Origin: Verrucomicrobiota bacterium
Lineage (GTDB): Bacteria; Verrucomicrobiota; Kiritimatiellia; CAIKKV01; CAITUY01
DNA length: 64,000 nucleotides
Reading direction: 5' to 3'
Assembly: GCA_011391785.1 (NCBI GenBank)
Contig: JAABPW010000228.1
Coordinates: 9,946-73,945, forward strand
Under the pieces are notes generated by a model, which was given only the letters and a program-made list of their open reading frames with translations, was not told where the DNA came from and ran no database searches. The translations under genes were made by a program, and so were the position numbers. Of this stretch, positions 23,242 through 57,873 are shown piece after piece; positions within the stretch are counted from its first letter, which is position 1; every line of letters starts with the position of its first letter.

Positions 23242-23244
23242 GGG

Positions 23245-37159: not shown

Positions 37160-37206
37160 CGTGTCTCCCTTGTCGTTAAAGATATGAAGTGCCTTCCGGG
37201 GTGCGA

Positions 37207-40584: not shown

Positions 40585-40772
40585 AATCCGTTGCACTTTT
40601 CCTTGAAATTGCCAGTCTCTTTAGTGCTTTAAACTTTGTATTGCAAAGTACTCTGCATTTTAATAGTGTTGATGGCGAAAGCAGCGGTAATGCCGGGCAG
40701 GGAGCCTGGACTGGGAGCGGCTGCTCGGGAAACCAGAAGGGGCGCGCAGCCCTGTTTGAAAAGGAGCCGGTC

Positions 40773-41558: not shown

Positions 41559-42296
41559 ATGGAAGAATCAAAACACCGTCCTGTAACACTGGCCGCCATG
41601 TGTCGCATGGATGCGGAGTTTGTCGGTTGCCTCGCGGAGGGCCGGAACACGCGGCCCATGCTCATCACGGCGCTGGGGGGGATCCTGATTGGAACCCTGG
41701 CCTACGGGGTGGTTTTCGGGTTATGGCGGGCACCCCTGCAGGCCGTGTTCTCCGGCTTCAAGCTGCCGCTGCTCTTTCTCCTGGTGGTGGCGGCAAGCGG
41801 CGTGATCAATGCCATGCTGGCGCAGGTCATGGGTGCCAGACTGGCCCTGAAGACGGTGGTTCTGCTGATGTTGGTGGGGATGGCGGTCACCGCCCTGCTG
41901 CTGGGTGCCCTGAGCCCGGTGGTGTGGTTCTTTGTGGCGCAAGCCCCGCCACCCGACCCCCTTGTGTTGGGGCTGGCCAAGGATAACGTGGCGGCGGCAA
42001 AATCAATGGGAGTGTATCGTGTCATCCTCGTCACCCATGTCGCGATCATCGGGGTGTGCGGGATTGTAGGGAATGCCCGGTTGTTCCGGATGATACGGGC
42101 CGTGACCGGGTCGGAGACCATGGCCTGGCGGCTTCTGCTCACCTGGATCATGGTTTCGGGTTTTGTGGGGTGTGAATTGTCCTGGCTCCTGAGTCCCTAC
42201 TTGTGCAATCCCCTTACTCCGCCGCACATTGTGAACCGGCAGTATTTTGAGAGTAATTTCTATGAGTATGTCTATCACGCATTACAGGGAAGGTAG
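41559..42296 (+). CDS. hypothetical polytopic membrane protein (tandem paralog of 40773-41528)
   Basis: 245 aa; RBS AGGGAGG; similar TM topology. Confidence 0.6.
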   Translation: MEESKHRPVTLAAMCRMDAEFVGCLAEGRNTRPMLITALGGILIGTLAYGVVFGLWRAPLQAVFSGFKLPLLFLLVVAASGVINAMLAQVMGARLALKTVVLLMLVGMAVTALLLGALSPVVWFFVAQAPPPDPLVLGLAKDNVAAAKSMGVYRVILVTHVAIIGVCGIVGNARLFRMIRAVTGSETMAWRLLLTWIMVSGFVGCELSWLLSPYLCNPLTPPHIVNRQYFESNFYEYVYHALQGR

Positions 42297-42353: not shown

Positions 42354-43997
42354 TTGTATCCTGACGGCGGGGATGCGGGTATTTTGGGAGCAAGAGCACG
42401 AAAACCGCAGAGGGGCATTGTCTTGGATATAGTCATCAGTAATTTGCGAATCGCCGTTGAACGGGACGGGCTGGAGGAATATGGCCAGGTCGCATCAGCC
42501 AGGCTGAATCTCGGTGTGTCCGATCTCAACGTTGTCAAAATTCTCGGCAAATCACTGGATGCCAAGGATGAGGAGCAGTTTTTCTTCCTCGTATCCATTG
42601 TCGCAAGGGTGCCGGATTCTTTCGCCAACGAGGAGGGGTTTCCCCTTCATGCGGAGGAGGCCAAGCCGGGAAGGACCGCCATCGTTTCCGCGGAGCGGCC
42701 TGTGATCATCGGCTTCGGTCCTGCTGGGATGTTTGCCGCGCTTGAACTTCTCGACTATGGAGTTAAACCCCTGATCTTTGAGCGGGGCAAAAGAATCGAA
42801 GAGCGTGATCTCGATATCCGGGGATTTATCCGCGACAGGACGCTCGATCCCGAGTCCAATATCCAGTTTGGTGAAGGCGGGGCCGGTTCCTATTCGGATG
42901 GAAAACTGTTCTCGCGAATCAATAATTCGCCTCATGCCAACAAGGTGCTGGATACCCTCATCCGGTTTGGCGCGCCCGGGGAAATCGGTTACCTCCGCAA
43001 GCCCCATCTGGGGACCGACGTTCTGCGCGGGATTGTCCGCAATATCAGGAATCATATCCTCTCCCGTGGCGGCGAGATCCATTATTCCTCGCGGTTGACG
43101 GATGTGCTTGTGTCCGGCGGCCTGGTGACTGGGGTCGTGATCAACGGCGCGGCCGAGTATCCTGCGCCAACCCTTTTTCTCGCCGTGGGGCATTCGGCCC
43201 GCGATACCTTCCGGATGCTCCATGATAAGGGCGTGGCGCTCGAGCAAAAGCCTATTTCCGTCGGCGTGCGGATCGAGCATCCGGCGGAGGTCATCAACCT
43301 GGTGAGATATGGCAGGAAATATCAGGCTTTTCCCGGGCTTGGGGCCGCCACCTATTCCTTCAACCATACCAATCGAAAGACGGGAAGGGGGGTCGCCACC
43401 TTCTGCATGTGCCCCGGCGGCGAGATTGTGAATGCCTCGTCTGAAAACGGCTTGTTGGTCCTGAATGGCATGAGTTACGCCGCCAGGTCCTCGGCTTTCT
43501 CGAATTCAGCGCTGGTGGTGAGCTGCCGCACGGCGGATTATCCCTCGGCGCATCCACTGGCCGGACTCGATTTCCAGGCGGAAATTGAGCGGAAAGCGTT
43601 TGAGACGGCCGGGGAGGGATGGACCGTTCCCGCGCAGAATCTGATGGATTTTATCGGCGGGCGGGTCTCTGCCGGAATCAAGGTCAACTCGTACAAGATG
43701 GGCTCCACCGCCGTTGACCTCAACGTGGTTTTGCCGGGATTTGTTTGCGAGGAACTCTCGACCGCCTTTGCCCGATGGAAGGAGGAGGCGCCCTTGTTCG
43801 TTTCGGAGCAGGCCGTCCTGTTGTCGCCGGAAACACGGACTTCTTCGCCCGTGCGAATTCGGCGCAACGAAAATTACGGGTCCGTCTCGCTGGAAAATCT
43901 GGTCCCGATCGGCGAAGGGGCGGGCTATGCCGGCGGAATCACCAGTTCGGCGATTGATGCCATCAAGGCGGTGGAGCGCCGCATGGCCGGGTCATAG
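42354..43997 (+). CDS. FAD-dependent oxidoreductase (COG2509-like uncharacterised FAD-dependent dehydrogenase)
   Basis: 547-aa ORF; dinucleotide-binding VIIGFGPAGMFAALEL; start uncertain (ATG 42354 or in-frame TTG 42423 preceded by AGAGGGG). Confidence 0.75.
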   Translation: MYPDGGDAGILGARARKPQRGIVLDIVISNLRIAVERDGLEEYGQVASARLNLGVSDLNVVKILGKSLDAKDEEQFFFLVSIVARVPDSFANEEGFPLHAEEAKPGRTAIVSAERPVIIGFGPAGMFAALELLDYGVKPLIFERGKRIEERDLDIRGFIRDRTLDPESNIQFGEGGAGSYSDGKLFSRINNSPHANKVLDTLIRFGAPGEIGYLRKPHLGTDVLRGIVRNIRNHILSRGGEIHYSSRLTDVLVSGGLVTGVVINGAAEYPAPTLFLAVGHSARDTFRMLHDKGVALEQKPISVGVRIEHPAEVINLVRYGRKYQAFPGLGAATYSFNHTNRKTGRGVATFCMCPGGEIVNASSENGLLVLNGMSYAARSSAFSNSALVVSCRTADYPSAHPLAGLDFQAEIERKAFETAGEGWTVPAQNLMDFIGGRVSAGIKVNSYKMGSTAVDLNVVLPGFVCEELSTAFARWKEEAPLFVSEQAVLLSPETRTSSPVRIRRNENYGSVSLENLVPIGEGAGYAGGITSSAIDAIKAVERRMAGS

Positions 43998-44335: not shown

Positions 44336-47300
44336 CTATGGCATAATCCCTACATTGATTTTGTAGTAGCCGCAGGGGGAGAGAGTGGCATTGGTGAAAC
44401 CACTTTTTGTCCAGGGAATATTGCTTTCTAGGCATTGAAACCCGCTTAGCAGATTGGTCGTCCAGTAAACCGAATAGACCCGTCCGGAAACGGCATTCCA
44501 GTCGAGTATATTGTTCGTGCCAGGCCGGTATCCTGTAATGCCAAACCCGGCCTCTTCGTCGTTTGGATCGAATCCGGCTAGATAGGCTTCGAGCACGGTG
44601 TTAATGCCGTTGGAGCAAACAGCATGCGGATTTCCATTTGTAATATTGCCGCAATGCTCCTGTTCCCAGGTATCAGGAATTCCATCACCATCGGCATCCC
44701 ACGGAATGATGGTGAGATGAAAGGTTTGCTGGATAGGCTGGTTCTCGGGTCCTGGCGGGCCCGGTAGACTGGCCATGACCAAAATATCCCATGTACCGGC
44801 AGTGGTCGGGATGCCCTCCAATTTGCCGTTTAAGGCGGATACCCCGGGCGGAAGGGTTGCCATCGGGTTGATGCTGATCTGAGAGGAAAGCGACGTCGCA
44901 AACATCCAAAGGAAACTGACCCCCACACGGGCGGAGGCCGAGCTGGCAGTGGTGAAAACAAGATTCGTAGCTCCTCCCCCGGACACCTCGATACGTGCGG
45001 GATCACTGGAGACAGTGCCACCCGGATTCCTGATCACAACACGAAACCAGCAGGTCGCGGAGAGTGCTGGCGTTGTTACGGTGTTGGATGTAGCGCCCTC
45101 AATGTCCGTATAAAGGCCGCCAAAGTCCGATGCCATCGACCACTGATAGGTCAGCAAATCGCTGGTGGCGGTAACGGAAAGTTGCGCCGTAGATCCCGCC
45201 GTAATTGGAGCGATGCTGCTGGCGGGCTGAACCGTGATCGTGGGGGCAGGATGAGCCGCATAGTAGGCGCTTTGGAGGGGGGCGAGCTCGTCGTTTCTAA
45301 GCCCTGTAACGACACTGTAACTGCCATCGTCCGCCAGAAAAGCCTCATCGGACAAATCCCAGAGTTGATCCATCACCGCGTTGAAACGGGCAATGAAGTC
45401 AGCCTCCGCCATGGAAAACCAGGACGGGACCTCCTCTATGATAACGGCCTTCATGGCCGTGATGCGATGGGGAAGATAATTGGTGGGGGCGTCAAGCCCG
45501 GGATCAGGCAGGTCCCTCATATTCGGCAAGCCGTTCCAATGAAGAATTTGATCCTGAGTCTCTCCTCCCACCGTGGGTTCCCCAGTCAAGCCGGTAAGGC
45601 GCACCGCCTCGCTCGTGTTGAGGAGCGCGTGATAGCGTGCAAGCTGGTTCGACACCGCTGAGGCATCGATCGGGTGCGCCTCTGAAGAATAGGTGGCCGC
45701 ATTGGTCCAGTCATCATAAACAAGCAAACGATGGAGGGAGCCACCCCCTTCGTAGGCTTGAACACGCGCAAAGGCCGCTTGATAGCCGTGCCACGCAGAG
45801 TCGTAAGCGTCTTTGAATGCCGGATTGGCCGTGACTAGAGCCTCATATTTCGACTGCAGGGCGCGAGCCGCAGTAAGTCCTGCGCTCCCCGGCGTGGCGA
45901 GAGCGGCGAGCAGCGAGGTTTTGTAAGTCGCCATCGAAAAGGCGTGCCCAACGACCAGCGTAAAGTCCTCCGGCGTTTGGGAGAAGTAACCGAGGCGCCC
46001 GATTGGCGGGTTCTGGGGTATGTTGAGAATAGGCTCCAACGGTCCGAGTACGAGGCCTGACGATGAAGCCAATGCGTTTTCCCACGCAAGGCCCTGTGCG
46101 ATCAAAACGGCTAAGGCGCCTTCTGCGGCGGAAAGATTTCCGTCGAGGTCAGCGGAAACGGAAGCGATTCCGCCGCTCCAGGTCACCACGGCGTCGGCCA
46201 GTTTATCCGCCAGCGTTTGCGCATTAACGAGTGACACGGGAAGCTGAGTCAAATACTGACCAAGACTAACCGCCAAATCCTCTGCCGGAGCTTGCCCCAT
46301 GCCGGGAATGTTGCTCCAGCCGGAGGAATAATAATTCTCAGGTGTGTCGCTATAGCCGCTCTCCTCGAGCAACGTCTTGAGCGAACGAGTCTGGTTCTGC
46401 AGGTTGAAAAGGGTGTTGTAGAGATCCGTGAGCGCCTCAACGTGAACAATTAACCCCGGCAATGCCGGGCCGGTAGGGGTCACATCGGTGACCCATTGTT
46501 GAATGGCGGCGCATGAGCTGATCGAGTCGTTATATGAAGCCGTCGTGTTGGCATCGAGGGTGTCTCCGTAAAAGGTGGAGATAAAGCCGGCGATCCGGGG
46601 CGTGGTGAGATAGACGGATACGCCGGTATCGATGGATGTTTGCCGCGCTTCGATCTGGGCCTGGCAGTTGGTGATTGCGGTGATCGGCGCCTCGGCGTTC
46701 CAGCGCGCAATCGCGGCATTGCGCACACGGGTTTGGTAGTCCGGAATGGGCTCGTTCTCTTCCTGCGGCGGGATTGGCTGATGAACCGGTGGCGAAACGG
46801 CGGACTGATTGGCGGCGAGTCTGGCCGCACCCTCTTCAAGCAGCTGCTGGGCCTTCAAGTCATCCAGCGCCGCAATGAGCGTAGCGAGCTCCTCTTCAAG
46901 GTGGCTCACCTCAGCTTGCGCCAGGGGGAGATCGAGGTCAGCATCGGTCTTGGCGGTGGCCGCTTCCGTGCTGAGGGCGTCCAGGGTCCCCAGGGCGGTG
47001 GCGATCGCGGTACGTACCATGCCGTTCTTGTAATAAATGACGCCAGGGCCTGTGGGGAGGATCACCTTGCCCGTTTGCTTCAGACAGGCACTGGCCACCG
47101 CATAGCCGTCCAACGCCAGTGTTTCCTGAACCAGGCCAAGGTTGGGGAAAGTGGCGCGTGCCGCATCAGAGACCGCCTTGATTTTTACATTGCGCGGACT
47201 ACAGAGCGTTTCGTCGTCAAGCCCCATCGCTTTTTTACGAGCATTATCGGCTCCGCTCTGAAGCGTTTCCAGCGCTACTTTACCCACGGCATTCCGGAGC

Positions 47301-47725
47301 CCGTGGGTAATCAGCGCATTGGCGGCAGTCTTGCCGATATTGATTTTATCAGCGACCTCGTTACAGGTCACGATGCCCAGTTGAATCGTGGTTTTGATGA
47401 GATTTTTGTTGTTGATATCCGCCAGCGTAACATCCGCGCTCCTGAGTTGCTGGCGAGCAGCGGTGATATCACTGGTTTTGGTGTCGAAATTGTCCAGAAA
47501 TTCGCTTAATATCGCAAGTTGGCGCTGTGCGGCGAGCAATTCAGCTTGCTTCGAATTGATCTCGCTCATCTTGGCCGTAATGGCACCTTCGTAGTCACCA
47601 GCGTTCGCCCCTGATTGTCCCTTGATCAGCGCCGAACCCTCGACATTAACGATTGCATTCACATCCTGAGCAATGCAGGCTGCGGTCATAGCCAGAATAA
47701 CTGCAGCTATAAAACTTCTCTTCAT
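44336..47725 (-). CDS. giant secreted hypothetical protein (N-terminal coiled coil, Ig-like region, thrombospondin-type Ca-binding DADGDGIPD motif)
   Basis: ~1130 aa from MKRSFIAAVILAMTAACIAQD; lower GC (~50%) than its surroundings; no catalytic motifs recognised. Confidence 0.7.
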   Translation of the reverse strand: MKRSFIAAVILAMTAACIAQDVNAIVNVEGSALIKGQSGANAGDYEGAITAKMSEINSKQAELLAAQRQLAILSEFLDNFDTKTSDITAARQQLRSADVTLADINNKNLIKTTIQLGIVTCNEVADKINIGKTAANALITHGLRNAVGKVALETLQSGADNARKKAMGLDDETLCSPRNVKIKAVSDAARATFPNLGLVQETLALDGYAVASACLKQTGKVILPTGPGVIYYKNGMVRTAIATALGTLDALSTEAATAKTDADLDLPLAQAEVSHLEEELATLIAALDDLKAQQLLEEGAARLAANQSAVSPPVHQPIPPQEENEPIPDYQTRVRNAAIARWNAEAPITAITNCQAQIEARQTSIDTGVSVYLTTPRIAGFISTFYGDTLDANTTASYNDSISSCAAIQQWVTDVTPTGPALPGLIVHVEALTDLYNTLFNLQNQTRSLKTLLEESGYSDTPENYYSSGWSNIPGMGQAPAEDLAVSLGQYLTQLPVSLVNAQTLADKLADAVVTWSGGIASVSADLDGNLSAAEGALAVLIAQGLAWENALASSSGLVLGPLEPILNIPQNPPIGRLGYFSQTPEDFTLVVGHAFSMATYKTSLLAALATPGSAGLTAARALQSKYEALVTANPAFKDAYDSAWHGYQAAFARVQAYEGGGSLHRLLVYDDWTNAATYSSEAHPIDASAVSNQLARYHALLNTSEAVRLTGLTGEPTVGGETQDQILHWNGLPNMRDLPDPGLDAPTNYLPHRITAMKAVIIEEVPSWFSMAEADFIARFNAVMDQLWDLSDEAFLADDGSYSVVTGLRNDELAPLQSAYYAAHPAPTITVQPASSIAPITAGSTAQLSVTATSDLLTYQWSMASDFGGLYTDIEGATSNTVTTPALSATCWFRVVIRNPGGTVSSDPARIEVSGGGATNLVFTTASSASARVGVSFLWMFATSLSSQISINPMATLPPGVSALNGKLEGIPTTAGTWDILVMASLPGPPGPENQPIQQTFHLTIIPWDADGDGIPDTWEQEHCGNITNGNPHAVCSNGINTVLEAYLAGFDPNDEEAGFGITGYRPGTNNILDWNAVSGRVYSVYWTTNLLSGFQCLESNIPWTKSGFTNATLSPCGYYKINVGIMP

Positions 47726-47790
47726 TTCTGTCCTCCTGACGTCATGGCTCACTGGCGACGAGCCTGACAGTGCGGCCACTTGTTTGCAGC

Positions 47791-48375: not shown

Positions 48376-48399
48376 GGTCGTAATTTCCCCCCTTTCGGG
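48376..48399 (+). promoter_or_regulatory. conserved 24-nt upstream motif, copy B (TCCCCCCTTTCGGGTGGTGATAAT) with extended -10-like TGATAATAT
   Basis: 23/24 nt identical to 38062-38085; ~80 nt upstream of the AKR gene that heads the propeller/FGE/CCP gene string. Confidence 0.6.
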
Positions 48400-48480
48400 T
48401 GGTGATAATATCTGGCTGGATTCACTATAGTTCGGTTCACAAAAGGTTCCCGATATGGGGCCGTGGGGAGATACCGGACT

Positions 48481-49485
48481 ATGCGTACTAGGAAACTCGG
48501 GAATTCAGGGATTGAAGCTTCTGTTGTCGGGCTTGGCGCCTGGGTGCTGGGCGGGGGGGCGGTGTGGGGGGCTGATACGGATGACAACGAGTCCATCGCC
48601 ACGATCAAATCGGCCCTGGATGCGGGCATCACTCTCATTGACACGGCACCCGCCTACGGGTTCGGGCGCAGCGAGGAGGTTGTGGGCAAGGCGATCCGCG
48701 GCCGGCGCGGCCAGGTTGTCCTGGCCACCAAGTGCGGGCTGTGGTGGGATGACCAGCGCGGATCCTACTTCTGTGAGTTCGACGGGCGCCCGATCCAACG
48801 ATCCCTGCGTCCCGACACGATTGTCATCGAACTCGAAAACAGCCTGCGGCGACTGGGAACCGATTACATCGACCTTTACCAGAGCCACTGGCCAGCGGTG
48901 GCGCCCGACAAGACTCCGATTGCCGACACCATGGCGTGCCTGATGAAGCTGAAGGAGCAGGGGAAGATCCGCGCCATCGGGGTCTCCAATGTGTCCATCC
49001 CGGAGCTGGGTGAGAATCTCGCCAGCGGGGATGTGGCCTCGAACCAGTTCCGCTACAGCATGCTGCACCGGGCCCCGGAGCAGGATATGCTCCCGGCCTG
49101 CCGCCAGAACAATTTGGCCACGCTGACCTACATGAGCCTCGAGCAGGGACTGCTGACCGGCAAGGTAGGCATGGACCGGTCCTTCTCGTCCGGCGATTTC
49201 CGCAGTAACGAAGCCTGGAATCCCTGGTACAAGATCGAGAACCGCCAGCGCGTGCTGGATTTTCTGGCCGGGTTCAAGCCCTTGACTGAAAAGTACGCCT
49301 GCACCACCGCCCAGCTGGTTATCGCCTGGACCCTGGCTCAGCCCGGCGTGACCCACACTCTGGCCGGCGCCCGCCGCGAGGCGCAGGCCCGGGAGAATGC
49401 CCGCGGCGGCGATATCCTGATCGAAATCGATGATTTGAAGGCCATGTGCAAGGCCGTGGAGGTGCTCGGTGAACCGATACGCTAA
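48481..49485 (+). CDS. aldo/keto reductase
   Basis: ~334 aa from MRTRKLGNSGIEAS; AKR TIM-barrel motifs (GITLIDTAPAYG, IDLYQSHWP). Confidence 0.88.
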   Translation: MRTRKLGNSGIEASVVGLGAWVLGGGAVWGADTDDNESIATIKSALDAGITLIDTAPAYGFGRSEEVVGKAIRGRRGQVVLATKCGLWWDDQRGSYFCEFDGRPIQRSLRPDTIVIELENSLRRLGTDYIDLYQSHWPAVAPDKTPIADTMACLMKLKEQGKIRAIGVSNVSIPELGENLASGDVASNQFRYSMLHRAPEQDMLPACRQNNLATLTYMSLEQGLLTGKVGMDRSFSSGDFRSNEAWNPWYKIENRQRVLDFLAGFKPLTEKYACTTAQLVIAWTLAQPGVTHTLAGARREAQARENARGGDILIEIDDLKAMCKAVEVLGEPIR

Positions 49486-52399
49486 GCGATATGCGACGAT
49501 GATCATCGGCGGGGCGTTGTGGCTGGCAGGGCAGACCGCCCCGGCCTTTGAGACAAACGCCCTGGCTCGCGCCATTGAGGACCTGTCGGCCTCGTTCCCG
49601 GCGCACTACACGCAGGGAGCTGATTTCCTGAAGCAATTGGCGGCGGTCCGCACCGAGGCTGAGTTCGCGGCCCTGGAGCGGAAGGCCCTGTTGGCCAATC
49701 CGCTTCTCGATTTCGACCAGGTGCTGGTGGTCAGGCGCGGCGCCGATAAGCTCGCCCTTCCCCAGAATTGGCAGGGAAACTGCGCCCTTCCTCCCAAAGG
49801 CTATCGCAACGACATCGCTGTCCTCTCCCTCTCCAACGGGGTTGCCAGGGCGCTCTTCACGCCGACCAACGGGGTGTTCGTCGGGGATGTGGATCTGGAT
49901 TTCGATGCCGACAAGCTCCTGTTCTCGATGCCTGATGACGCTGGCAACTGGCATGTCTGGGAACTGGTCGCGAACGGGGCCGGCCTTAAAAAGGTCACTC
50001 CCGATGAGCCGATGATTGACCAGTACGACGCCTGTTACCTGCCGGATGGCGGGATTATTTTCAACTCCACCGCCGCCGTTGCCGGGGTGCCCTGTGTCGG
50101 GGGCGGGACGGTTGTGGCCAACCTTTTCCGCATGTCGGCCGACCGGAGCACGATCCGGCGCCTATGCTTCGACCAGGAGCACAATTGGTGCCCCACGGTG
50201 TTGAATGACGGGCGTATCCTGTACACCCGCTGGGAATATACCGACACGCCGCATTACTTCACCCGCCTGCTGTTCTCGATGAATCCGGACGGAACGACCC
50301 AATCGGCCTACTATGGTAGCAATTCCTATTGGCCCAATTCCATCTTCTATGCGCGGCCCATTCCCGGTGTAGCGGGCAAGGTGGTTGGGATTGTCTCCGG
50401 TCACCACGGCGTGACGCGGATGGGGGATCTCATCCTGTTTGATCCGGGCTTCGGCCGCAACGAGTCCGCCGGGGTCGTCCAGCGTATTCCCGGGTTCGGG
50501 AAAAAGGTTGAACCGGTAATCAAGGATCAGCTGGTGGATGATGTCTGGCCGAAGTTCCTGCATCCCTATCCGCTGAGCGCGAAATATTTCCTGGTTTCCT
50601 GCAAGCCCGGACCCCATGAAAAGTGGGGGATATACCTGGTGGACGTTTTCGACAATAGGGTGCGGCTCTACGACGAGCCGGGCATGGCCATCCTGGAGCC
50701 CATCCCGTTCCGGAAGACCGTCAGGCCCCCGGTGATTCCCGACCGTGTCAATCTGGATGAAAAGGAAGCCACGGTCTATCTCAACGATGTCTATACGGGC
50801 CCCGGCCTCGCGGGTGTGCCTCGCGGGACAGTGACAAAACTTCGCGTCTACACCTATCATTTCGCCTACCCGGGAATGGGGGGGCATATCAACGTGGGGA
50901 TCGATGGCCCCTGGGATGTGCGCCGTTTACTGGGAACCGTGCCGGTCAATGCCGATGGCTCAGCATCGTTCAAGGTGCCTGCCAACATGCCCCTGGCCCT
51001 GCAGCCGCTGGACAAGGACGGGCAGGCCCTCCAGATCATGCGGAGCTGGTTCACCGCCATGCCCGGTGAGAGCGTGACCTGCGCGGGGTGTCATGAGAAG
51101 CAGAATACCACCCCGCCATCGCGACCGAACAAGGCGGTTCTGCAGAAACCGGTAACGATCACCCCGTGGTACGGTCCTTTCCGCGGTTTCAGCTTCACCC
51201 GCGAGGTGCAGCCGGTCCTGGACCGGAACTGCACCGGGTGTCATTCCCAATTCGCCGCGAACCAGCCCAAGATCGGCGGCTTTACCCGTTCCTATTTCGC
51301 CCTGCATCCCTTTGTGCGGCGGCCTGGCCCCGAGAGCGATTACCATATGCCGAAGCCCTACGAGTATCATGCAAGCACCAGTGAGCTGGTCCAGATGCTG
51401 CGCCAGGGGCATCATGGTGTCCGGCTCGACAAGGAGGACTGGGACCGCCTCACGACCTGGATCGACCTCAACGTCCCCGATCATGGCACATGGGGCGAGC
51501 ACCACTCCATCCCGGCAAACATGGAGACGTTGCGCCGGGACATGCTGAAGAAGTATGCGCAGATGGACGATAACCCGGAGGTGATCCCGGAGACGCCTGC
51601 CAGAAGCACTAAATTTGTCCCGCCCGCCGCGACGTCTCAGGAAAAACCGGCCGTCAAGGACTGGTCCGTTGATGCCCGCTGGGGCCAGGGACTGGCCCCT
51701 GAAATGAAATTCGATCTCGGGGAGGGGAAGGTTATGGAGCTGGTCCTGATCCCGGCGAAGAAGCCCTTCTATATGGGGCGTTTCGAGGTCGTGAATGCGC
51801 AGTACCGGCTGTTCGATCCGGATCATGACAGCGGTTATGTCCAGATCTTCAACAAGGACCGAACGGCCCGGGGGGTTCCGGTTAATGGGGCGGCCCAGCC
51901 TGTCGTGCGGGTCACCTGGCAGGAAGCCTCGGCTTTCTGTGCCTGGCTGTCGAAGAAAACGGGGAACAAATTCAAGCTGCCCGACGAAGATCAATGGGAA
52001 TGGGCCTGCCGCGCCGGAAAGGCGACCCCGATGTGGTACGGGGAGACCAACGCGGATTTTGCAACGTTCGCCAATCTGGCGGATACCAACCTGGCAGAAT
52101 TAACCCCCGGGAATTCCCCGAAATGGATTCCGGCGATCCGGACGGTCGATGACGGGGTGGCGGCAACGGCCGGGGTGGGGCGCTATCTGCCGAATCCGTG
52201 GGGACTTTACGACATGCACGGGAATGCCGCGGAATGGACCTCGTCCGTGACCCGCGAGGGGGAGCGGATCTGTCGGGGCGGCTCCTTCTATGACCGTCCG
52301 AAACGGGCCACCGCCAGTTCGTACCGCGGCTATCTTCCTTTCCAGCCGGTTTTTGATGTCGGGTTCAGGGTAATCATGGAACTTCCCGATCGTAAATGA
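49469..52399 (+). CDS. secreted TolB-like beta-propeller / CxxCH (PSCyt1-like) protein fused to a C-terminal FGE-sulfatase (formylglycine-generating enzyme family) domain, paralog C
   Basis: 976 aa; GTG start with GGAGG RBS, overlapping the AKR stop; propeller blocks paralogous to A/B; TCAGCHEKQ and NCTGCHSQ; C-terminal ~270 aa is FGE-like (RVTWQEASAFCAWL...WEWACRAG...MHGNAAEWTSS...RGGSF). Confidence 0.8.
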   Translation: MNRYAKRYATMIIGGALWLAGQTAPAFETNALARAIEDLSASFPAHYTQGADFLKQLAAVRTEAEFAALERKALLANPLLDFDQVLVVRRGADKLALPQNWQGNCALPPKGYRNDIAVLSLSNGVARALFTPTNGVFVGDVDLDFDADKLLFSMPDDAGNWHVWELVANGAGLKKVTPDEPMIDQYDACYLPDGGIIFNSTAAVAGVPCVGGGTVVANLFRMSADRSTIRRLCFDQEHNWCPTVLNDGRILYTRWEYTDTPHYFTRLLFSMNPDGTTQSAYYGSNSYWPNSIFYARPIPGVAGKVVGIVSGHHGVTRMGDLILFDPGFGRNESAGVVQRIPGFGKKVEPVIKDQLVDDVWPKFLHPYPLSAKYFLVSCKPGPHEKWGIYLVDVFDNRVRLYDEPGMAILEPIPFRKTVRPPVIPDRVNLDEKEATVYLNDVYTGPGLAGVPRGTVTKLRVYTYHFAYPGMGGHINVGIDGPWDVRRLLGTVPVNADGSASFKVPANMPLALQPLDKDGQALQIMRSWFTAMPGESVTCAGCHEKQNTTPPSRPNKAVLQKPVTITPWYGPFRGFSFTREVQPVLDRNCTGCHSQFAANQPKIGGFTRSYFALHPFVRRPGPESDYHMPKPYEYHASTSELVQMLRQGHHGVRLDKEDWDRLTTWIDLNVPDHGTWGEHHSIPANMETLRRDMLKKYAQMDDNPEVIPETPARSTKFVPPAATSQEKPAVKDWSVDARWGQGLAPEMKFDLGEGKVMELVLIPAKKPFYMGRFEVVNAQYRLFDPDHDSGYVQIFNKDRTARGVPVNGAAQPVVRVTWQEASAFCAWLSKKTGNKFKLPDEDQWEWACRAGKATPMWYGETNADFATFANLADTNLAELTPGNSPKWIPAIRTVDDGVAATAGVGRYLPNPWGLYDMHGNAAEWTSSVTREGERICRGGSFYDRPKRATASSYRGYLPFQPVFDVGFRVIMELPDRK

Positions 52400-52455
52400 T
52401 ACTCTCAACCCCGTTGCCCTGGGAGGGGGGCTGTCTGCATCGAGAAGGGGGAGGC

Positions 52456-54792
52456 ATGAGTATCAGGTTTGATCGTCTCTGTTCCATATTCGTGCTGATA
52501 TCGGCTGTTCCCGTGTTTGCCGCGGACGTGTCGCCGTCGCTGCCTGAGGTGGCGAAGCAATCGGTCCTGTTCGTCACGCGCCACCAATACCAGCGCGACC
52601 ACCATAACACGCACGATTTCTTTCCCGTGGCGGAGCATGAATTCAACCTGGGTGAATTCACGCCCGGCAGCGCCATGAAGATTATCGAGCTGCCGTCGCG
52701 GAAGATCACCACCCTCCTGGAAACGAAGACGGGCGTCATCCGCGACCCGGACCTGAGTTATGATGCCCGGAAAATTGTCTTCTCCATGCGCCGCGACACT
52801 CAGGACAGTTATCACATCTACGAGATCAATGTCGATGGGACGGGCTTGAGGCAACTGACGTCGCTGAAGGATGCCGATGATCTCGACCCGGTCATCCTGC
52901 CGGATGGCCACATCCTGTTCAGCTCTACCCGGGAACCGAAGTACTGCCTCTGCAACCGGCATATCATGGGCAACCTGTACCGCATGGAGCCGGATGGCGC
53001 CAACATCATCCAGATCAGCAAGAACACGCTGTTCGACAACAAGCCCTCCGTGATGCCGGATGGACGGATCCTCTATACGCGCTGGGAATATGTCGACCGC
53101 GAGCAGCTGAGCGCCCAGGGCCTGTGGGTCTGCAATCCCGACGGCACGCGTCACCAGTTGATCTGGGGGAACAACACGCAAAGTCCGGGCGGCATCCAGG
53201 ATGGCCGCATCATTCCTGGCACCCGTCAGCAGATCGTGTGCACCTTCTCTCCCTGCCACGACAGGAGCTGGGGGGCGATTGCCCTTATCAACCGATCCCT
53301 CGGCATGGACGGTCCGAAGCCCGTGGTGAAGATCTGGCCCGCCTCCGCCCGCCGCCTGATTGCGGAGGTCGGTTCCTGTGATGCCTTTGCCGTATGTAAT
53401 CCCAAGTACGAGGATCCCTATCCCCTGACGTATCCCGGGACCGGAATCGCGGGCCGCTATTTCCTCAGCATCCGAACCATCGGCAAGGGCGAAAAAACCG
53501 CGATCGTCCTGCTTGATGCCGAAGGCGAGGATGTTGTCCTGCACGAGGAGGTGGGGCCGCTGGGTTGCTTTGACCCCATGCCGGTGAGGGCAAGGGAAAA
53601 GCCGCCCGTTGTCCCGGCGCAACGCAAATACGATATTGGATCGGAAGGGGCCTTGTATATTTCCGACGTCTATAACGGAACCCACATGCAGGGGATCGCC
53701 AGGGGCGATGCCAAGTTCCTGCGAATTGTCGAAACGCCGGAAAAACGGTTTTACGTGCTACGGCATACCTGGACCGCCCCGGCCATCAACTGGAATGAAT
53801 TCAACACCAAGAGGATCATCGGCACCGTGCCGGTGGAGGAGGATGGCTCTGCCTATTTCACCGTTCCGTCCGAGAAATTCGTCTACTTCCAGTTGCTCGA
53901 CAAGGATGGCATGATGATCCAGTCCATGCGCAGCGGCACCTATGTCCAGCCGGGAGAAACGCAAGGGTGCAACGGCTGCCACGAGAACCGCCTGTCCACC
54001 CCGCTCACGCGCCCTGACAAGTCGGCGGCCTTGAGGAAGAAGCCCGCGGTCCCCTCAGGATGGTACGGGAGCAGGGAGTCCTTCAATTTCCTGTCCGCGA
54101 TCCAACCCATCCTGGACCAGCACTGCCTGAAGTGTCATGACTACGGCGGGCAGGGGGCCAGGAAAGTTGTGCTTGCGGGAGATAAGAGCGTCCCTTTCAA
54201 TGTGTCCTACATGGAACTGCACCGCAAAAAATATCTCGGCAGCATCGGGGCCGGCCCGGTTCCCATTTTCCAGCCGAAAACATGGGGATCCCATGCCAGT
54301 AAACTCATCGACATCCTGCGGAAGGGGCACAAGGAGGTGCGCCTGTCGCGGGAAGAACTCGACAAGATCATCACCTGGGTTGATCTCAATGCCCCTTATT
54401 ACCCCTCCTTTGCCTGTTCCTTCCCGGACAATGTGACGGGGCGCTGTCCGTTGAACGACGAGGAGTTGACGCGGCTCGAACAGATGACCGGGCGACCGGA
54501 CCTGATCGCCAGCCTCAATGAATGGGCCTGGAAAGCGCCTGAACCATTCCTGAATTTCGACCGGCCGGCCCTGAGCCCGATCATGCAGGCCGTTCCTGCG
54601 AAGGACAAGGAAACCGCCTTGAAGATCATTCAGACTGGCGCATTGCGTCTAAGGGACAAGCCTCGCGCCGACATGCCCGGGTTCAAGTTGTCGGGCCTCG
54701 ATGAATGGCGTGAAGAGAAGTATCAGAAGCGCCTTGGCCGTGAAGCGGTCAACCGGGAGGCCGTGACCAAGGGTAAAAAGGTCTATGATTGA
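52456..54792 (+). CDS. secreted TolB-like beta-propeller protein with two CxxCH motifs (PSCyt1-like), paralog B
   Basis: ~778 aa from MSIRFDRLCSIFVLISAVPVFAADV (RBS GGGGAGG); closest paralog of 38113-40584. Confidence 0.8.
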   Translation: MSIRFDRLCSIFVLISAVPVFAADVSPSLPEVAKQSVLFVTRHQYQRDHHNTHDFFPVAEHEFNLGEFTPGSAMKIIELPSRKITTLLETKTGVIRDPDLSYDARKIVFSMRRDTQDSYHIYEINVDGTGLRQLTSLKDADDLDPVILPDGHILFSSTREPKYCLCNRHIMGNLYRMEPDGANIIQISKNTLFDNKPSVMPDGRILYTRWEYVDREQLSAQGLWVCNPDGTRHQLIWGNNTQSPGGIQDGRIIPGTRQQIVCTFSPCHDRSWGAIALINRSLGMDGPKPVVKIWPASARRLIAEVGSCDAFAVCNPKYEDPYPLTYPGTGIAGRYFLSIRTIGKGEKTAIVLLDAEGEDVVLHEEVGPLGCFDPMPVRAREKPPVVPAQRKYDIGSEGALYISDVYNGTHMQGIARGDAKFLRIVETPEKRFYVLRHTWTAPAINWNEFNTKRIIGTVPVEEDGSAYFTVPSEKFVYFQLLDKDGMMIQSMRSGTYVQPGETQGCNGCHENRLSTPLTRPDKSAALRKKPAVPSGWYGSRESFNFLSAIQPILDQHCLKCHDYGGQGARKVVLAGDKSVPFNVSYMELHRKKYLGSIGAGPVPIFQPKTWGSHASKLIDILRKGHKEVRLSREELDKIITWVDLNAPYYPSFACSFPDNVTGRCPLNDEELTRLEQMTGRPDLIASLNEWAWKAPEPFLNFDRPALSPIMQAVPAKDKETALKIIQTGALRLRDKPRADMPGFKLSGLDEWREEKYQKRLGREAVNREAVTKGKKVYD

Positions 54793-54910
54793 GCCACGGC
54801 GCCCTATTGAATAACCACCCGAAAGTGGGGGTTCCAATATTCTTATTTCGGGTTACCTTTAAGCAAATGACCGAGATGGGGTGTCTACTATGGAGAAGGG
54901 GATAATTTTA

Positions 54911-56770
54911 ATGAAAAACTATCTGCGGTTTACGATGTCGGGTGTTGGGGCTGTCCTGGTGTGTGTCCTTGTGTCCCAGGCCCGGGCGGGATGGTTCAGT
55001 GCAAAAAGCGAAGCCCGTTATTATTCCCCTTGCGCCGTTGTGGCATCCGACGATGGTAACGATGTGTTCGTGGCCGAATATTCCGCCAACCAAGTGGTCC
55101 AGGCTGATGTTGTCAAGGGAGGCCTGAAGCGCACCATTGCCACAAAACTACCCCCGTCCGGTCTTGCCCTGGATTCCAGGTCCGGTGTCCTGTTTGTCAC
55201 ACTGGAGTCAAACGAGGGACAGGTTGTCCTGATCGACACCCGCACGGGAAAGCTGGAAGCCCGGATTGCCGTTGGCCATACCCCGCTTGCGCCGGCGTTG
55301 AGTCCCGACGGGAAGACCCTGGCCGTCTGCAACCGGTTCAATAACAATGTCAGCCTGATTGACGTCCCTTCCCGCAAGGAATCGGGGCGGGTTGCCGTTT
55401 CCCGGGAGCCCGTGGCGGCGGCCTTCTCGCCCGATGGTCGTCAGCTCCTGATCGCCAGCCATTTGCCGTCCATGCCCGCCAATGGCGACTATAGCGCTTC
55501 GGTCGTTACGGTGATTGATCCTGCCACGCGGCTTGTGGTGACCAACCTGACGCTTCCCAACGGGTCCACCGGGCTCCGGGGCCTGTGCGTTTCGCCCGAT
55601 GGCCGGTATGCCTATGTGACCCATACGCTTGGCCGGTATCAGTTGCCGACCACCCAGCTCGAGCGGGGGTGGATGAACACCAGCGCCATCAGCATTATTG
55701 ACCTGCAGGGCGTGAAGATGCTGTCCACCGTGCTGCTGGATGACGTTGACCTGGGGGCGGCTAATCCTTGGGGGGTGGCCTGTACGACCAATGGGGCGCT
55801 GTTGTGTGTGGCTCAGGCGGGCACGCACGAGGTCAGTGTGATTGACCGCAATGCCCTCCATGAACGCCTTGGCCGTGTTGCCAAGGGCGAGAAAGTCGGA
55901 GTGTCCCTGTCGCTGGAGGATGTCCCGAATGACCTGAGTTTCCTGGTCGGGATCCGGCAACGCGTCAAGCTGCCCGGGAACGGGCCCCGCGGGTTATGCC
56001 TGGCCGGTGACCTCGCGGTCGCGGGGATGTACTTCAGCGACAATCTGGCGGTTGTGTCGCTGACGACCACCCCGGTGGTGGCCCGCGAGGTGTCGCTTGG
56101 GCCCAAGACACCGCTTTCCGAGGAACGCAAGGGAGAGATGTATTTCAATGACGCCGCGTTCTGTTTCCAGGAATGGCAGAGCTGCGCGAGCTGTCACCCC
56201 GACGGAAGGGCAGATGCCCTGAACTGGGACCTGCTCAATGACGGGATTGGAAACCCGAAGAATACCAAGAACATGCTGCTGAGCGTTCAAACTCCGCCCT
56301 CGATGAGCCTCGCGGTGCGTGCGGATGCGGCCATGGGGGTTCGGGCAGGACTCAAGTTCATCCAGTTCTCCATGCGGCCTGAGGAGGATGCCCTGGCGAT
56401 TGATGCGTACCTGACCAAGATGAAGCCGGTTCCCAGCCCCTATCTCGAGAAAGGCAAGCTTAGCAAGGCCGCCCGCCGTGGCGAAAAGGTGTTCAGGAAG
56501 GCCAACTGCGCCACCTGTCATTCCGGCTCACTCTACACCGACCTCCAGACCCATGAGATGGGTATGGGGCAGGGGATGGACAAGGATAAGCCTTTTGATA
56601 CACCCACCCTTGTGGAGTGCTGGCGCACAGCGCCGTTTCTTCATGACGGGCGGGCCTCCACGATGAAGGAGCTGTTCCAGGAATTTAATAAGGATGACGT
56701 TCACGGTGACACCAGCAAGTTGTCGCCGCGGGAGCTGGATGACCTGGTGGAGTTTGTATTGTCGTTGTGA
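54911..56770 (+). CDS. secreted YVTN-family beta-propeller fused to a di-heme cytochrome c peroxidase (CCP/MauG-family) domain
   Basis: ~619 aa from MKNYLRF (RBS GAAGGGGA); N-terminal YVTN/PQQ-like repeats (SPDGKTLAVCNRFNNNVSLID, SPDGRQLLIASH, SPDGRYAYVTH); C-terminal CASCHPDG and CATCHSG with the CCP signature FDTPTLVECWRTAPFLHDGRASTMKE. Confidence 0.8.
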   Translation: MKNYLRFTMSGVGAVLVCVLVSQARAGWFSAKSEARYYSPCAVVASDDGNDVFVAEYSANQVVQADVVKGGLKRTIATKLPPSGLALDSRSGVLFVTLESNEGQVVLIDTRTGKLEARIAVGHTPLAPALSPDGKTLAVCNRFNNNVSLIDVPSRKESGRVAVSREPVAAAFSPDGRQLLIASHLPSMPANGDYSASVVTVIDPATRLVVTNLTLPNGSTGLRGLCVSPDGRYAYVTHTLGRYQLPTTQLERGWMNTSAISIIDLQGVKMLSTVLLDDVDLGAANPWGVACTTNGALLCVAQAGTHEVSVIDRNALHERLGRVAKGEKVGVSLSLEDVPNDLSFLVGIRQRVKLPGNGPRGLCLAGDLAVAGMYFSDNLAVVSLTTTPVVAREVSLGPKTPLSEERKGEMYFNDAAFCFQEWQSCASCHPDGRADALNWDLLNDGIGNPKNTKNMLLSVQTPPSMSLAVRADAAMGVRAGLKFIQFSMRPEEDALAIDAYLTKMKPVPSPYLEKGKLSKAARRGEKVFRKANCATCHSGSLYTDLQTHEMGMGQGMDKDKPFDTPTLVECWRTAPFLHDGRASTMKELFQEFNKDDVHGDTSKLSPRELDDLVEFVLSL

Positions 56771-56790
56771 TGGGGGGAGGGGGAACCACA

Positions 56791-57873
56791 ATGAAACTGC
56801 CGGAAAAAGATGTGGCGCGTTTTGTACGCCCGATCGGGCACTGCGGCGTAACGGAAGCCTGTCTCGGTGTGCAGCGTCTTGGCGACGACCCGATGTCGGT
56901 TTTCCAGGGGTTCCCTCAGGAACCCGGGGAAGTAGCGGCCCAACTGGTTTTTGGAGGGTGTCAATTCCAGGAAGCCGGCCAGGCGCTCATGGGCGGGGCC
57001 AAGTGGCCGATGATGTGGCTTCAGGGTGATCCGTGCGATGGGAAGCACGTGGCCGGGCTCCAAGCCCTGCTGCTCAAGGGTGCGTCCATCAGGCGGCTCC
57101 AGTTGGACGGTGCGGTGGTCGGATCGGCCTGGTCTGACGAGGATGCCGACTATTGCCTGCTGGCCGGGATTATGCCTTCCGATTTGTCTGCCTCCCGTAG
57201 CGATCAGGCGCGGCAGGTCTTTGAGCGGATCGAGACGGTCCTCAGGCAGGCGGACATGGGTTTTGACGACGTGATCCGAACCTGGCTGTATCTGGATCAC
57301 CTGCTCGACTGGTATGGGGATTTCAATGTCGTCCGCACCCGGTTTTTCGAGGAACGTGGCGTGATGGGGAAGCGGGTTCCTGCGAGCACCGGAATCGGAG
57401 CCCGCAATCCGCTCGGTTCGGCGATTGTGGCGGGTGCCCTGGCGATCCGCCCGAAACACAAGGGTGTCAAGATCACGCTGGTATCCTCGCCGCTCCAGTG
57501 TTCCGCCCTGGAGTACAAGAGTACCTTCAGTCGCGCGGTTGAATTGGAGTTTCCCGGGCGGCGCCAGCTGCTCATCTCCGGCACGGCGAGCATTGCCCCG
57601 GGGGGCGAATCGGTGCACCGGGGTGATACGGCGGCCCAGATCGAACTGACCATGAAGGTGGTTGCCGCCATCCTGGAGTCACGGGGCATGACGTGGAAGG
57701 ACACGACGCGCGCCATCGGTTATTTCCAGGACATGAAGGATGCCCCGCTGCTGGCGGAGTATTGCCGGGCAAACGGGATCAAGGACTTCCCGGTGGTCAA
57801 CGCCCACGCCACCGTCTGCCGCGATGATCTTCTCTTCGAGATCGAACTGGACGCCGCCGTTACCTGCTGCTAA
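56791..57873 (+). CDS. tandem RidA/YjgF-like (Rid family) protein
   Basis: ~360 aa from MKLPEKDV (G-rich RBS); two YjgF-like repeats (IRTWLYLDHLLDWYGDFNVVRTRFF, AIGYFQDMKDAPLLAEYC...VVNAHATVCRDDLLFEIELDA); assignment by motif resemblance only. Confidence 0.5.
   Translation: MKLPEKDVARFVRPIGHCGVTEACLGVQRLGDDPMSVFQGFPQEPGEVAAQLVFGGCQFQEAGQALMGGAKWPMMWLQGDPCDGKHVAGLQALLLKGASIRRLQLDGAVVGSAWSDEDADYCLLAGIMPSDLSASRSDQARQVFERIETVLRQADMGFDDVIRTWLYLDHLLDWYGDFNVVRTRFFEERGVMGKRVPASTGIGARNPLGSAIVAGALAIRPKHKGVKITLVSSPLQCSALEYKSTFSRAVELEFPGRRQLLISGTASIAPGGESVHRGDTAAQIELTMKVVAAILESRGMTWKDTTRAIGYFQDMKDAPLLAEYCRANGIKDFPVVNAHATVCRDDLLFEIELDAAVTCC

Follow-up and report, generated by a model that had tools for sequence, protein, structure and literature searches.

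To our knowledge, hydrazine synthase (HZS) of anaerobic ammonium-oxidising (anammox) bacteria was long held to stand without relatives, and its origin is unsettled. In this enzyme, haem alpha-I has Tyr591, four residues past the His of its CxxCH motif, as proximal ligand, plus a His587-Zn site; haem gamma-I has a third covalent link via gamma-Cys165, haem gamma-II is bis-His ligated with His229 and His332, and nitric oxide (NO) is reduced within the di-haem gamma fold (PMC12607021). Weak 'hzs-like' genes were reported from metagenome-assembled genomes (MAGs) of Phycisphaerae in 2023, and a broader enzyme family was proposed (PMC10732223). More recently, co-located homologues of the alpha and of a fused beta-gamma subunit were described outside anammox bacteria and assigned to clades I-IV; key HZS residues are not conserved in them, and their function was left open (Hagglund et al., Genome Biol Evol 2025; PMC12758564). 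Here we analyse a locus of this kind in a 64,000-nucleotide stretch (hereafter the window) of a Verrucomicrobiota bacterium assembly (GCA_011391785.1, contig JAABPW010000228.1). Five genes of the window encode an aldo/keto reductase (AKR), two HZS-alpha-like proteins (alpha-FGE, which carries a domain of the fold of formylglycine-generating enzyme (FGE), and alpha2), a fused beta-gamma-like protein and a protein with two RidA folds in tandem (Rid2; Table 1). Sequence comparison securely identifies the locus as encoding distant, non-anammox relatives of HZS and not HZS itself. Homologue clusters are thus already known, while the fusion to the FGE-like domain and the conserved partner genes are newly described here.

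Both propeller-haem proteins encoded upstream of beta-gamma are securely full-length HZS alpha-like proteins. Their middle domain matches the Pfam family HZS_alpha (PF18582) with E 4.6e-30 in alpha-FGE and 3.8e-31 in alpha2. Alpha-FGE consists of a six-bladed-type propeller, this middle domain, two CxxCH motifs and a C-terminal domain of the FGE/PvdO fold. In a Foldseek search, the best PDB match of its AlphaFold2 (AF2) model (pLDDT 67) was 5c2v_A (E 1.7e-21 over 786 columns), with a match to TolB (1e-10) eleven orders of magnitude weaker, and a family profile of alpha-FGE found HZS-alpha as the sole solved relative of the N-terminal 700 residues. Across phyla, the propeller of alpha-FGE retains about 55% identity, with motifs such as RWEY.D.PHYF, YGSNS.WPNS and SGHHG. 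Alpha2 is 33% identical to alpha-FGE, has no FGE domain, and has 5c2v_A as its sole PDB relative (54.6 bits, in four collinear stretches). An earlier reading of the window, made without database searches (hereafter the sequence-only reading), had described TolB propellers with CxxCH domains in these proteins. The HZS_alpha identity was missed there, and the single CxxCH that it gave for the propeller-FGE protein is in fact two, at residues 538 and 588.

The fourth protein is securely a fused HZS beta-gamma-like protein, in which an HZS-beta-like, seven-bladed YVTN propeller is followed by an HZS-gamma-like di-haem domain. Its best NCBIfam model is that of the hydrazine_BC fusion (159.1 bits, residues 24-564), and its sequence matches 5c2v_B with 118.6 bits and 5c2v_C with 93.5 bits. 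The top Foldseek match of a beta-gamma model (pLDDT 74.5) was likewise 5c2v_B, with E 5e-24 and a TM score of 0.87. The AF2 models of beta-gamma were built from database proteins, and since the confidence of both the alpha-FGE and the beta-gamma models is low in their haem-domain parts, we draw no inference on haem pockets or tunnels from them. Pfam assigns a YVTN repeat (58 bits) and CCP_MauG (33.2 bits against a cutoff of 25.6) to the protein, which upholds the YVTN and di-haem domains of the sequence-only reading. That reading, however, had taken the di-haem domain as MauG-like and the protein as a MauG-type maturation catalyst. Searched alone with phmmer, the domain scored 98.8 bits with HZS-gamma, 28.9 with the cytochrome c peroxidase 3o5c and a non-significant 11.9 (E 1.2) with MauG, and the MauG equivalog TIGR03791 gave only 36.6 bits against a cutoff of 443.85. 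What had looked MauG-like is therefore part of a fused relative of 5c2v_B and 5c2v_C.

Residue by residue, the similarity to HZS is selective. There is no equivalent of Tyr591, as the motifs CAGCHEKQN of alpha-FGE and CNGCHENRL of alpha2 lack a Tyr at position +4. The position of gamma-Cys165 is an alignment gap ('ldrvCgrdp' versus 'lkfi.....'), and gamma-His144 likewise falls in a gap. In the same alignment, H547 of the CATCH motif lies opposite gamma-His229, and H608, which is invariant in the family, lies opposite gamma-His332, a position that is occupied by Met in peroxidases and by Tyr in MauG. The most conserved motif of the beta-gamma family, PTTQLERGWMNT, is aligned with the HZS-beta loop that nears the inter-haem tunnel. 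Because the anammox-specific residues alpha Tyr591 and gamma Cys165 are absent, we conclude that the locus does not encode a hydrazine synthase. In addition, the cutoffs of the NCBIfam HZS equivalogs NF052339 to NF052342 were all missed by a wide margin: alpha-FGE and alpha2 scored 35.7 and 72.9 with hydrazine_alpha (cutoff 800), beta-gamma also fell short of the hydrazine_BC fusion cutoff of 1250, and the other HZS models gave 103.6 versus 560 and 96.5 versus 625. No gene for hydrazine dehydrogenase/hydroxylamine oxidoreductase, nitrite reductase or another nitrogen-cycle enzyme was found among the scanned open reading frames (ORFs) of the window or among the recurrent neighbours in the related loci described below.

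These data bear on whether the locus could serve inorganic nitrogen-oxide chemistry, for example as a detoxifying reductase that turns NO or nitrite into hydroxylamine or ammonium, or as a cryptic enzyme that forms N-N bonds. We consider this unlikely. Homology to all three HZS subunits, the apparent conservation of the bis-His gamma-II ligand and of the beta-loop motif, the role of the gamma fold in NO reduction in HZS (PMC12607021) and the action of RidA-type proteins on imines, themselves nitrogen-containing intermediates, are all in line with such a function, but it is difficult to combine with haem motifs that lack the Tyr at +4, with the gaps at gamma-Cys165 and gamma-His144, with the failure to reach a single HZS equivalog cutoff and with the missing nitrogen-cycle genes. 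Hagglund et al. (2025) came to the same conclusion for the related homologue clusters (PMC12758564).

The two proteins belong to very large families. Alpha-FGE has at least 7,988 homologous clusters at 90% identity, the best 120 of which all have the same two-domain architecture, and beta-gamma has at least 6,997, which go by the names "cell surface protein", "c-type cytochrome" or "lactonase family". In species-representative genomes, at least 588 matches to alpha-FGE were confirmed. The matches listed are from Planctomycetota, Verrucomicrobiota, Kiritimatiellia, Lentisphaerota, Hydrogenedentota, Sumerlaeota and others, although some of the MAG labels may reflect binning errors. Cultured carriers among our loci are Blastopirellula marina and a Verrucomicrobiaceae isolate, and Anaerohalosphaera lusitana is a carrier in the published survey (PMC12758564).

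We compared gene neighbourhoods in 80 loci from genomes seeded with alpha-FGE, 80 independent loci from metagenomes seeded with beta-gamma, and five loci of close beta-gamma relatives (individual loci are given as L numbers). Upstream sequence of 2.5 kb or more was available for 43 of the beta-gamma loci, and in 29 of them the immediate upstream neighbour of beta-gamma is a co-oriented alpha-like gene; 14 of these alpha-like genes include the FGE domain. At least one alpha-like gene was present in 17/20 long loci, with a mean of 1.5 per beta-gamma gene. When all ORFs of the related loci were clustered (the window being counted where it carries a family), the recurrent families were alpha-like (126 loci), beta-gamma (98), Rid2 (28), a cupin with a TAT signal (22), DhaK (18), a DeoC/LacD aldolase (17), DhaL (16), a 106-amino-acid protein (15), AKR (11) and an SGL-like lipoprotein (11). 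Across 160 related loci, the recurrent operon runs from an AKR gene or a VOC-DhaK-DhaL-aldolase-isomerase cassette through alpha-FGE, in some cases alpha2, and beta-gamma to tandem-RidA and, in some cases, a lactonase-like gene. Its canonical string, with gaps of approximately 15-35 nt, is 106-aa protein, DhaK, DhaL, aldolase, cupin, alpha-FGE, beta-gamma, Rid2 and lipoprotein; it is complete in L111 and L050, lacks the lipoprotein gene in L096 and L031, and lacks both end genes in L039. Closer to the arrangement in the window are L104 (alpha, AKR, alpha-FGE, alpha-FGE, beta-gamma, Rid2), L162 (AKR, small ORF, alpha-FGE, beta-gamma, Rid2) and L099 (the 3' end of alpha-FGE at the contig start, alpha2, beta-gamma, Rid2). 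Orthologues of alpha2 with 48-53% identity are found between alpha-FGE and beta-gamma in L099, L128, L145, L042 and L059. Varying combinations of these genes are kept together as an operon in different phyla. Indeed, each of the five genes recurs beside the others in other phyla far beyond chance, which answers the question of co-occurrence raised by the sequence-only reading.

The partner genes encode small-molecule enzymes. The AKR is cytoplasmic (PF00248, E 5.6e-62, 209.9 bits against a cutoff of 24) and is closest in NCBIfam to the YdjG methylglyoxal-reductase type (NF049922), at 319 bits against a cutoff of 550. Its orthologues, with 61-81% identity, adjoin alpha-FGE or beta-gamma in L052, L055, L075, L081, L084, L104 and L108, and a PF00248 gene is also found beside the system in L162 and L163. 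Rid2 matches PF01042 over two stretches (61 bits) and the FkbO/Hyg5-like family PF21168 (33 bits). Its match to FkbO (4bps) amounts to 47.6 bits over residues 115-360, and TIGR04444 gave 71.7 bits against a cutoff of 325, so that a relation to the FkbO/Hyg5 chorismatases at the level of the fold is likely from these profile scores. Besides the window, Rid2 is present in 27 loci, and it lies directly downstream of beta-gamma in 15/60 testable metagenome loci.

Within the cassette, the aldolase is a class I enzyme of the LsrF type (437.7 bits against an NCBIfam equivalog cutoff of 297), DhaK and DhaL reach 342 and 151 bits, the cupin family profile points to D-lyxose/D-mannose isomerases (7nzo, 105 bits; 2y0o, 101 bits) and the 106-aa family has a weak match to glyoxalase I (28.7 bits); the recurrent lipoprotein is SGL/lactonase-like. 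No locus contains both AKR and the DhaKL-aldolase cassette, and this mutual exclusion suggests that one stands in for the other in dealing with a common product.

Other families that recur in the neighbourhoods are glycoside hydrolase family 29 (GH29) fucosidase, sulfatase, Gfo/Idh/MocA, GH67N/malectin, ThuA and a GlcNAc-2-epimerase fold, with GH29 fucosidase in the same gene string in L095 and L108. In L166 (2982-20474), the genes directly before alpha-like, beta-gamma and Rid2, and in their orientation, are those of two GH29 fucosidases and one sulfatase, and GH2 and GH95 genes come after them. This string hints at a link to fucose-containing sulfated glycans that does not stand out from the background of Planctomycetota-Verrucomicrobiota-Chlamydiota (PVC) genomes. 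Over approximately 2.2 Mb, we counted 11 GH29 fucosidase and 16 sulfatase ORFs, and a connection to fucoidan was kept as a hint only, these counts not being clearly above the PVC background. Two further loci are of separate interest. In L162 (9154-18014), whose beta-gamma is 74% identical to that of the window, the genes downstream of Rid2 in the same orientation are two of the radical-SAM type, an NirD/L-like (AhbA/B-type) gene and tetrapyrrole-synthesis genes matching glutamyl-tRNA reductase/sirohaem synthase, ALA dehydratase, an aminotransferase, and porphobilinogen deaminase with uroporphyrinogen synthase and methylase. A haem-protein operon is here joined to an alternative haem-synthesis cluster. 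L068 (326-20664), on a 20-kb contig labelled as a Gammaproteobacteria MAG and possibly misbinned, shows an extreme expansion of paralogues, with seven HZS-alpha-like genes in a row together with the cupin and the 106-aa gene.

The C-terminal domain of alpha-FGE matches PF03781 (FGE-sulfatase) over residues 765-969 (E 1.4e-29, 104 bits) and retains the GNAAEWT core motif. Towards its end, no Cys follows RGGS936, and the tail RGGSFYDRPKRATASSYRGYLPFQPVFDVGFRVIMELPDRK is free of Cys; the consensus of an 18-sequence family at this place, GGSFYDRP, contains none either. The Cys pair C-terminal to RGGS (Cys336/Cys341 in human SUMF1) we take to be the catalytic, copper-binding pair of FGE. When the C-terminal tail was aligned by BLAST with an approximate human SUMF1 segment, the GNA.EWT motif alone was aligned. 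Compared with solved structures, the alpha-FGE family profile scored highest over this domain with PvdO (102.6 bits), followed by PorK/GldK (91) and human FGE (85). Given that no Cys follows the RGGS motif, the domain is not a formylglycine-generating enzyme; the fold is present, but with a Cys-free tail and with PvdO and PorK/GldK ahead of FGE we rejected this identity. A match to ToxD of the toxoflavin pathway (50 bits) was considered as a lead towards N-N chemistry and was also dropped, since PvdO, PorK and FGE scored higher by family profile.

The sequence-only reading had proposed a module for the oxidative maturation of secreted proteins, in which FGE makes formylglycine, the MauG-like domain oxidises secreted clients and the propellers dock them. 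An FGE-sulfatase fold and an above-cutoff CCP_MauG match are indeed present, all three haem proteins appear to be exported, and sulfatases are numerous in PVC genomes, with sulfatase genes in 12 of the 160 loci. Both proposed catalysts fail at the level of residues, however: the FGE-like domain is without the catalytic Cys pair and has non-FGE proteins (PvdO, PorK/GldK and ToxD) as its closest solved relatives, while the similarity to MauG is non-significant and the second haem has, at the position aligned with its distal ligand, the His of HZS-gamma where MauG has a Tyr. No mau or mbn genes were found among the scanned window ORFs or the recurrent neighbour families, and no sulfatase, quinoprotein or mau-type substrate gene emerged as a consistent partner in the related loci, the frequency of sulfatases not exceeding the PVC level. 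As the recurrent neighbours are cytoplasmic small-molecule enzymes and not protein substrates, we regard a protein-maturation function as very unlikely.

The N-termini of alpha-FGE, alpha2 and beta-gamma each contain a charged stretch, a hydrophobic stretch and then A-x-A, in accordance with the signal peptides that had been assigned to all propeller proteins, and together these three proteins have six c-type haem motifs, two CxxCH in each. AKR and Rid2 have no signal-like segment at their N-terminus. The signal segments, haem motifs and neighbourhoods thus agree with the general idea of an extracytoplasmic c-type-haem redox module encoded in one conserved gene string. On this basis we lean, if only just, towards an operon that encodes a periplasmic haem complex of HZS-like, non-anammox type, acting on a small, probably carbohydrate-derived molecule, together with two cytoplasmic small-molecule enzymes. 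The identity of the proteins is secure; the mechanism is our extrapolation from homology and gene context. By analogy with HZS, beta-gamma would be the common redox module, its bis-His haem gamma-II taking or giving electrons and its haem gamma-I being catalytic. Interchangeable alpha-like subunits would pair with it and provide a second haem site and substrate specificity, and the FGE-fold domain, with its C-type-lectin-like fold, would be a non-catalytic binding module. The chemistry would be neither hydrazine synthesis nor protein maturation, and the substrate would be a small organic molecule, most likely derived from carbohydrate. A reactive carbonyl or imine product could then be handled in the cytoplasm. 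In the window this would fall to AKR and the tandem-RidA/chorismatase-like protein, elsewhere to the sugar isomerase, the DhaKL kinase, the class I aldolase and the glyoxalase-like protein. Isomerase, C1-kinase and aldolase would make up a route from an aldose to dihydroxyacetone phosphate and an aldehyde, with the reductase as an alternative.

Several observations weigh against this interpretation. The only cytoplasmic partners in the window are AKR and Rid2, the sugar cassette being seen in other genomes only. Since Rid2 and AKR are cytoplasmic and the haem proteins are exported, any metabolite used by both would need a passage through the membrane, and the operon has no conserved transporter among the related loci. 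The proposed haem ligation and inter-subunit tunnel are read from the alignment alone. The adjacency of fucosidase and sulfatase genes is not clearly above background, because carbohydrate genes are common throughout PVC genomes. Finally, among the alpha-FGE loci with 4-kb flanks, 18/39 have a partner family within 6 kb and 21/39 are solitary, so that alpha-FGE need not always work with beta-gamma.

The many solitary alpha-FGE genes would also be compatible with a periplasmic peroxidase or electron-transfer chain that has no dedicated organic substrate and for which AKR and Rid2 are unrelated neighbours, as would the six c-type haems and the membership of the di-haem domain in the bacterial cytochrome c peroxidase superfamily (the 3o5c match given above). 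Simple electron transfer, though, has no need of large propellers with dozens of invariant non-haem residues, the gamma domain is far nearer to HZS-gamma than to the peroxidases, and several phyla repeatedly show AKR, Rid2 and the sugar cassette in closely packed runs of co-oriented genes. We therefore think a chain of this type quite unlikely. In summary, the residue tests and the neighbourhoods disfavour all three alternatives, namely nitrogen-oxide chemistry, protein maturation and a peroxidase or electron-transfer chain.

A more far-reaching form of the HZS-like, small-molecule interpretation, which we put forward tentatively and hold to be rather doubtful, is that the alpha-FGE/beta-gamma/Rid2 core defines a very large, phylum-spanning family of periplasmic two-site haem enzymes. 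Hydrazine synthase would have evolved from this non-anammox stock, and the enzymes would act on a small molecule derived from carbohydrate by a redox reaction not yet described. For instance, an amino group, a sulfate or some other substituent might be removed by oxidation, giving a 2-oxoaldehyde or ketose that would then enter either the route of isomerase, DhaKL kinase and aldolase or the AKR route. One beta-gamma module would serve several interchangeable alpha subunits.

The five genes were found as co-oriented + strand ORFs at the places given by the sequence-only reading, and all were verified (340, 976, 798, 629 and 368 aa). Its gaps of 20-60 nt do not hold for the longest ORFs, whose junctions are -17, -4, +88 and -4 nt, and hold roughly if refined internal starts are used: starts that fit the signal peptides or the homologues (M21 of alpha2, the ATG of AKR at 48481 and a Rid2 start further downstream) result in small positive gaps. 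Homologues of Rid2 align only from about residue 42-75.

Upstream of AKR lies the conserved motif that had also been noted in the sequence-only reading, and its significance is strengthened by a second copy upstream of A3, a third HZS-alpha-like gene of the window, with a single mismatch where 0.00 matches are expected by chance. The similarity of the two regions spans approximately 50 nt and includes equally spaced -10-like hexamers, TATAGT and TAGAAT. We read the regions as promoters because the two have this conserved block in common, and not from a generic scan: GTGATA-18-TATAGT scored as sigma-70-like, yet such sites were not enriched (3 found versus 3.2 expected), and generic sigma-70 promoter and terminator scans of the region gave counts that were not above those of shuffled sequence. 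A 14-nt core of the motif is absent from all 161 related loci searched, and the motif is therefore lineage-specific. An Rfam search of the region matched no RNA family. A partial inverted copy in the gap between alpha2 and beta-gamma might represent an additional operator, a promoter for antisense transcription or a mere remnant. Beyond Rid2, a perfect 22-bp stem-loop (-45.4 kcal/mol, z -8.8, with 0/200 shuffles folding equally well) lies between convergent genes and was called terminator-like on the - strand by the terminator scan; it is probably the 3' end of the transcription unit.

The second motif copy sits between A3 and a divergent gene for an IclR-family protein, which is a candidate regulator of both motif-bearing promoters. 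IclR-type genes flank the system in three genomes (L033 and L060, where homologous genes border the extended operon, and the window). A3 is 49% identical to alpha2 and is probably co-regulated with the operon through the common motif. Closely spaced behind A3, and in its orientation, are the membrane-protein and FAD-dependent genes. These are possible members of the regulon, with the membrane proteins as candidates for the transport or electron link that is otherwise missing. Including a fourth paralogue with C-terminal repeats, the window contains four HZS-alpha-like genes and one beta-gamma gene.

Table 1. Genes and sequence elements of the HZS-like locus and of the linked A3 region (window positions).
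Feature	Position	Strand	Description
Fourth HZS-alpha-like paralogue	33317-37363	-	1,348 aa; PD40, partial HZS_alpha, one CxxCH, C-terminal HEAT/PBS-lyase repeats
IclR-family regulator gene	37207-37980	-	IclR_C 131.7 bits, HTH_IclR 44 bits; divergent from A3
Second motif copy	38063-38085	+	1 mismatch to CCCCCCTTTCGGGTGGTGATAAT; 28 nt upstream of A3
A3, third HZS-alpha-like gene, alpha2 type	38113-40584	+	PF18582 E 2.5e-32; two CxxCH; hydrazine_alpha 57 bits
Multi-pass membrane proteins	40641-41528, 41559-42296	+	No Pfam match; hydrophobic sequences, downstream of A3
FAD-dependent protein	42354-43997	+	PF21688
Promoter-region block	48385-48431	+	23-nt core CCCCCCTTTCGGGTGGTGATAAT at 48387-48409, then TATAGT (-10-like) at fixed spacing
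AKR	48463-49485	+	PF00248; start probably ATG 48481
Alpha-FGE	49469-52399	+	PF18582 and PF03781; CxxCH at 538, 588
Alpha2	52396-54792	+	PF18582; CxxCH at 525, 577; start probably M21 (52456)
Partial inverted motif copy	54811-54831	-	CCCCCACTTTCGGGTGGTTAT; alpha2/beta-gamma intergenic gap
Beta-gamma	54881-56770	+	hydrazine_BC fusion model; CxxCH at 435, 543
Rid2, tandem RidA fold	56767-57873	+	PF01042 in two stretches; start may be further downstream
Stem-loop	57962-58010		Perfect 22 bp; 89 nt past the Rid2 stop codon

Two other regions of the window, both on the - strand, were recorded. Directly upstream of the operon and divergent from it is an ORF of 1,147 aa (44336-47779) with no significant Pfam family save a faint immunoglobulin-like match. 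At 20679-25269, two adjoining rhodanese-domain genes, one fused to a YeeE/YedE-like sulphur-transport domain and the other to a metallo-beta-lactamase domain (persulfide-dioxygenase-like), form a sulphur-handling cluster unrelated to the operon.

The locus belongs to a very large uncharacterised family that keeps the three-subunit architecture of HZS and not its catalytic residues. The AKR or sugar cassette, the tandem-RidA protein, the IclR protein and the promoter motif offer testable handles on the function of an ancestral-type enzyme. If the substrate is a carbohydrate derivative, the family would represent a new class of periplasmic haem enzymes in polysaccharide-degrading PVC bacteria and a plausible evolutionary starting point for anammox chemistry.

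Single parts of the system have counterparts elsewhere. Alpha-FGE has the fold and the GNAAEWT core in common with SUMF1/FGE, PvdO, PorK/GldK, ToxD and the EgtB C-domain; unlike FGE it is without the catalytic Cys pair, and no solved member of this fold family is joined to a haem-propeller protein as alpha-FGE is. With MauG, the bacterial di-haem cytochrome c peroxidases and MbnH, beta-gamma shares the CCP_MauG superfamily, two CxxCH motifs and a PYLHDG-type motif, and differs from them in the fusion to a propeller and in its higher score with HZS-gamma. Rid2 has the same tandem RidA-fold architecture as the FkbO/Hyg5 chorismatases, which it shares with the RidA imine deaminases, but is always found beside an HZS-like beta-gamma and not in polyketide or aromatic clusters.

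The nearest described loci are the clusters of Hagglund et al. (2025; PMC12758564). There, as in the window, alpha lies upstream of a fused beta-gamma and the key HZS residues are missing. The locus may belong to clade IV, whose published description (no FG-GAP/CRTAC1 and no ABC-transporter genes, and a taxon-specific order) it fits; the additional N-terminal haem domains of clade I are not found on the beta-gamma of the window. Neither PMC12758564 nor PMC10732223 mentions the fusion to an FGE domain in its main text, and a supplementary table of the former contains one SUMF1-annotated match at the 80-bit threshold. The AKR, Rid2, DhaKL, aldolase and isomerase partners, the IclR link and the motif are not described in these two papers, and a literature search found no paper on the operon combination or on any of these features. 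The remark of the sequence-only reading that it did not recognise the combination as a described system holds with respect to function, whereas clusters of non-anammox HZS homologues had been published in 2025.

Compared with HZS of the anammox bacterium Kuenenia stuttgartiensis (5C2V), the proteins of the window are only 17-25% identical, and they are without the Tyr591 ligand and the Zn site of haem alpha-I and the third covalent link of Cys165. The locus differs in its order, with alpha before beta-gamma, in having two to four alpha paralogues per beta-gamma, in the additional FGE-fold domain on one alpha and in the genes around it, none of the anammox partner genes being found among the scanned ORFs. 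The host is an uncultured PVC bacterium, Kiritimatiellia-like, non-anammox and not Brocadiia, as judged from its elongation factor G, which is 97% identical to metagenome proteins and approximately 75% identical to its best named relatives, from Kiritimatiellae. In common with the anammox enzyme, the proteins are exported, alpha consists of a propeller, a middle domain and two c-type haems, and a seven-bladed beta propeller is combined with a di-haem, cytochrome c peroxidase-like gamma, with beta and gamma fused as they are in Scalindua. The bis-His gamma-II ligand and the beta-loop region appear from the alignment to be kept in beta-gamma, and both in structure and in sequence HZS is the best match in the PDB.

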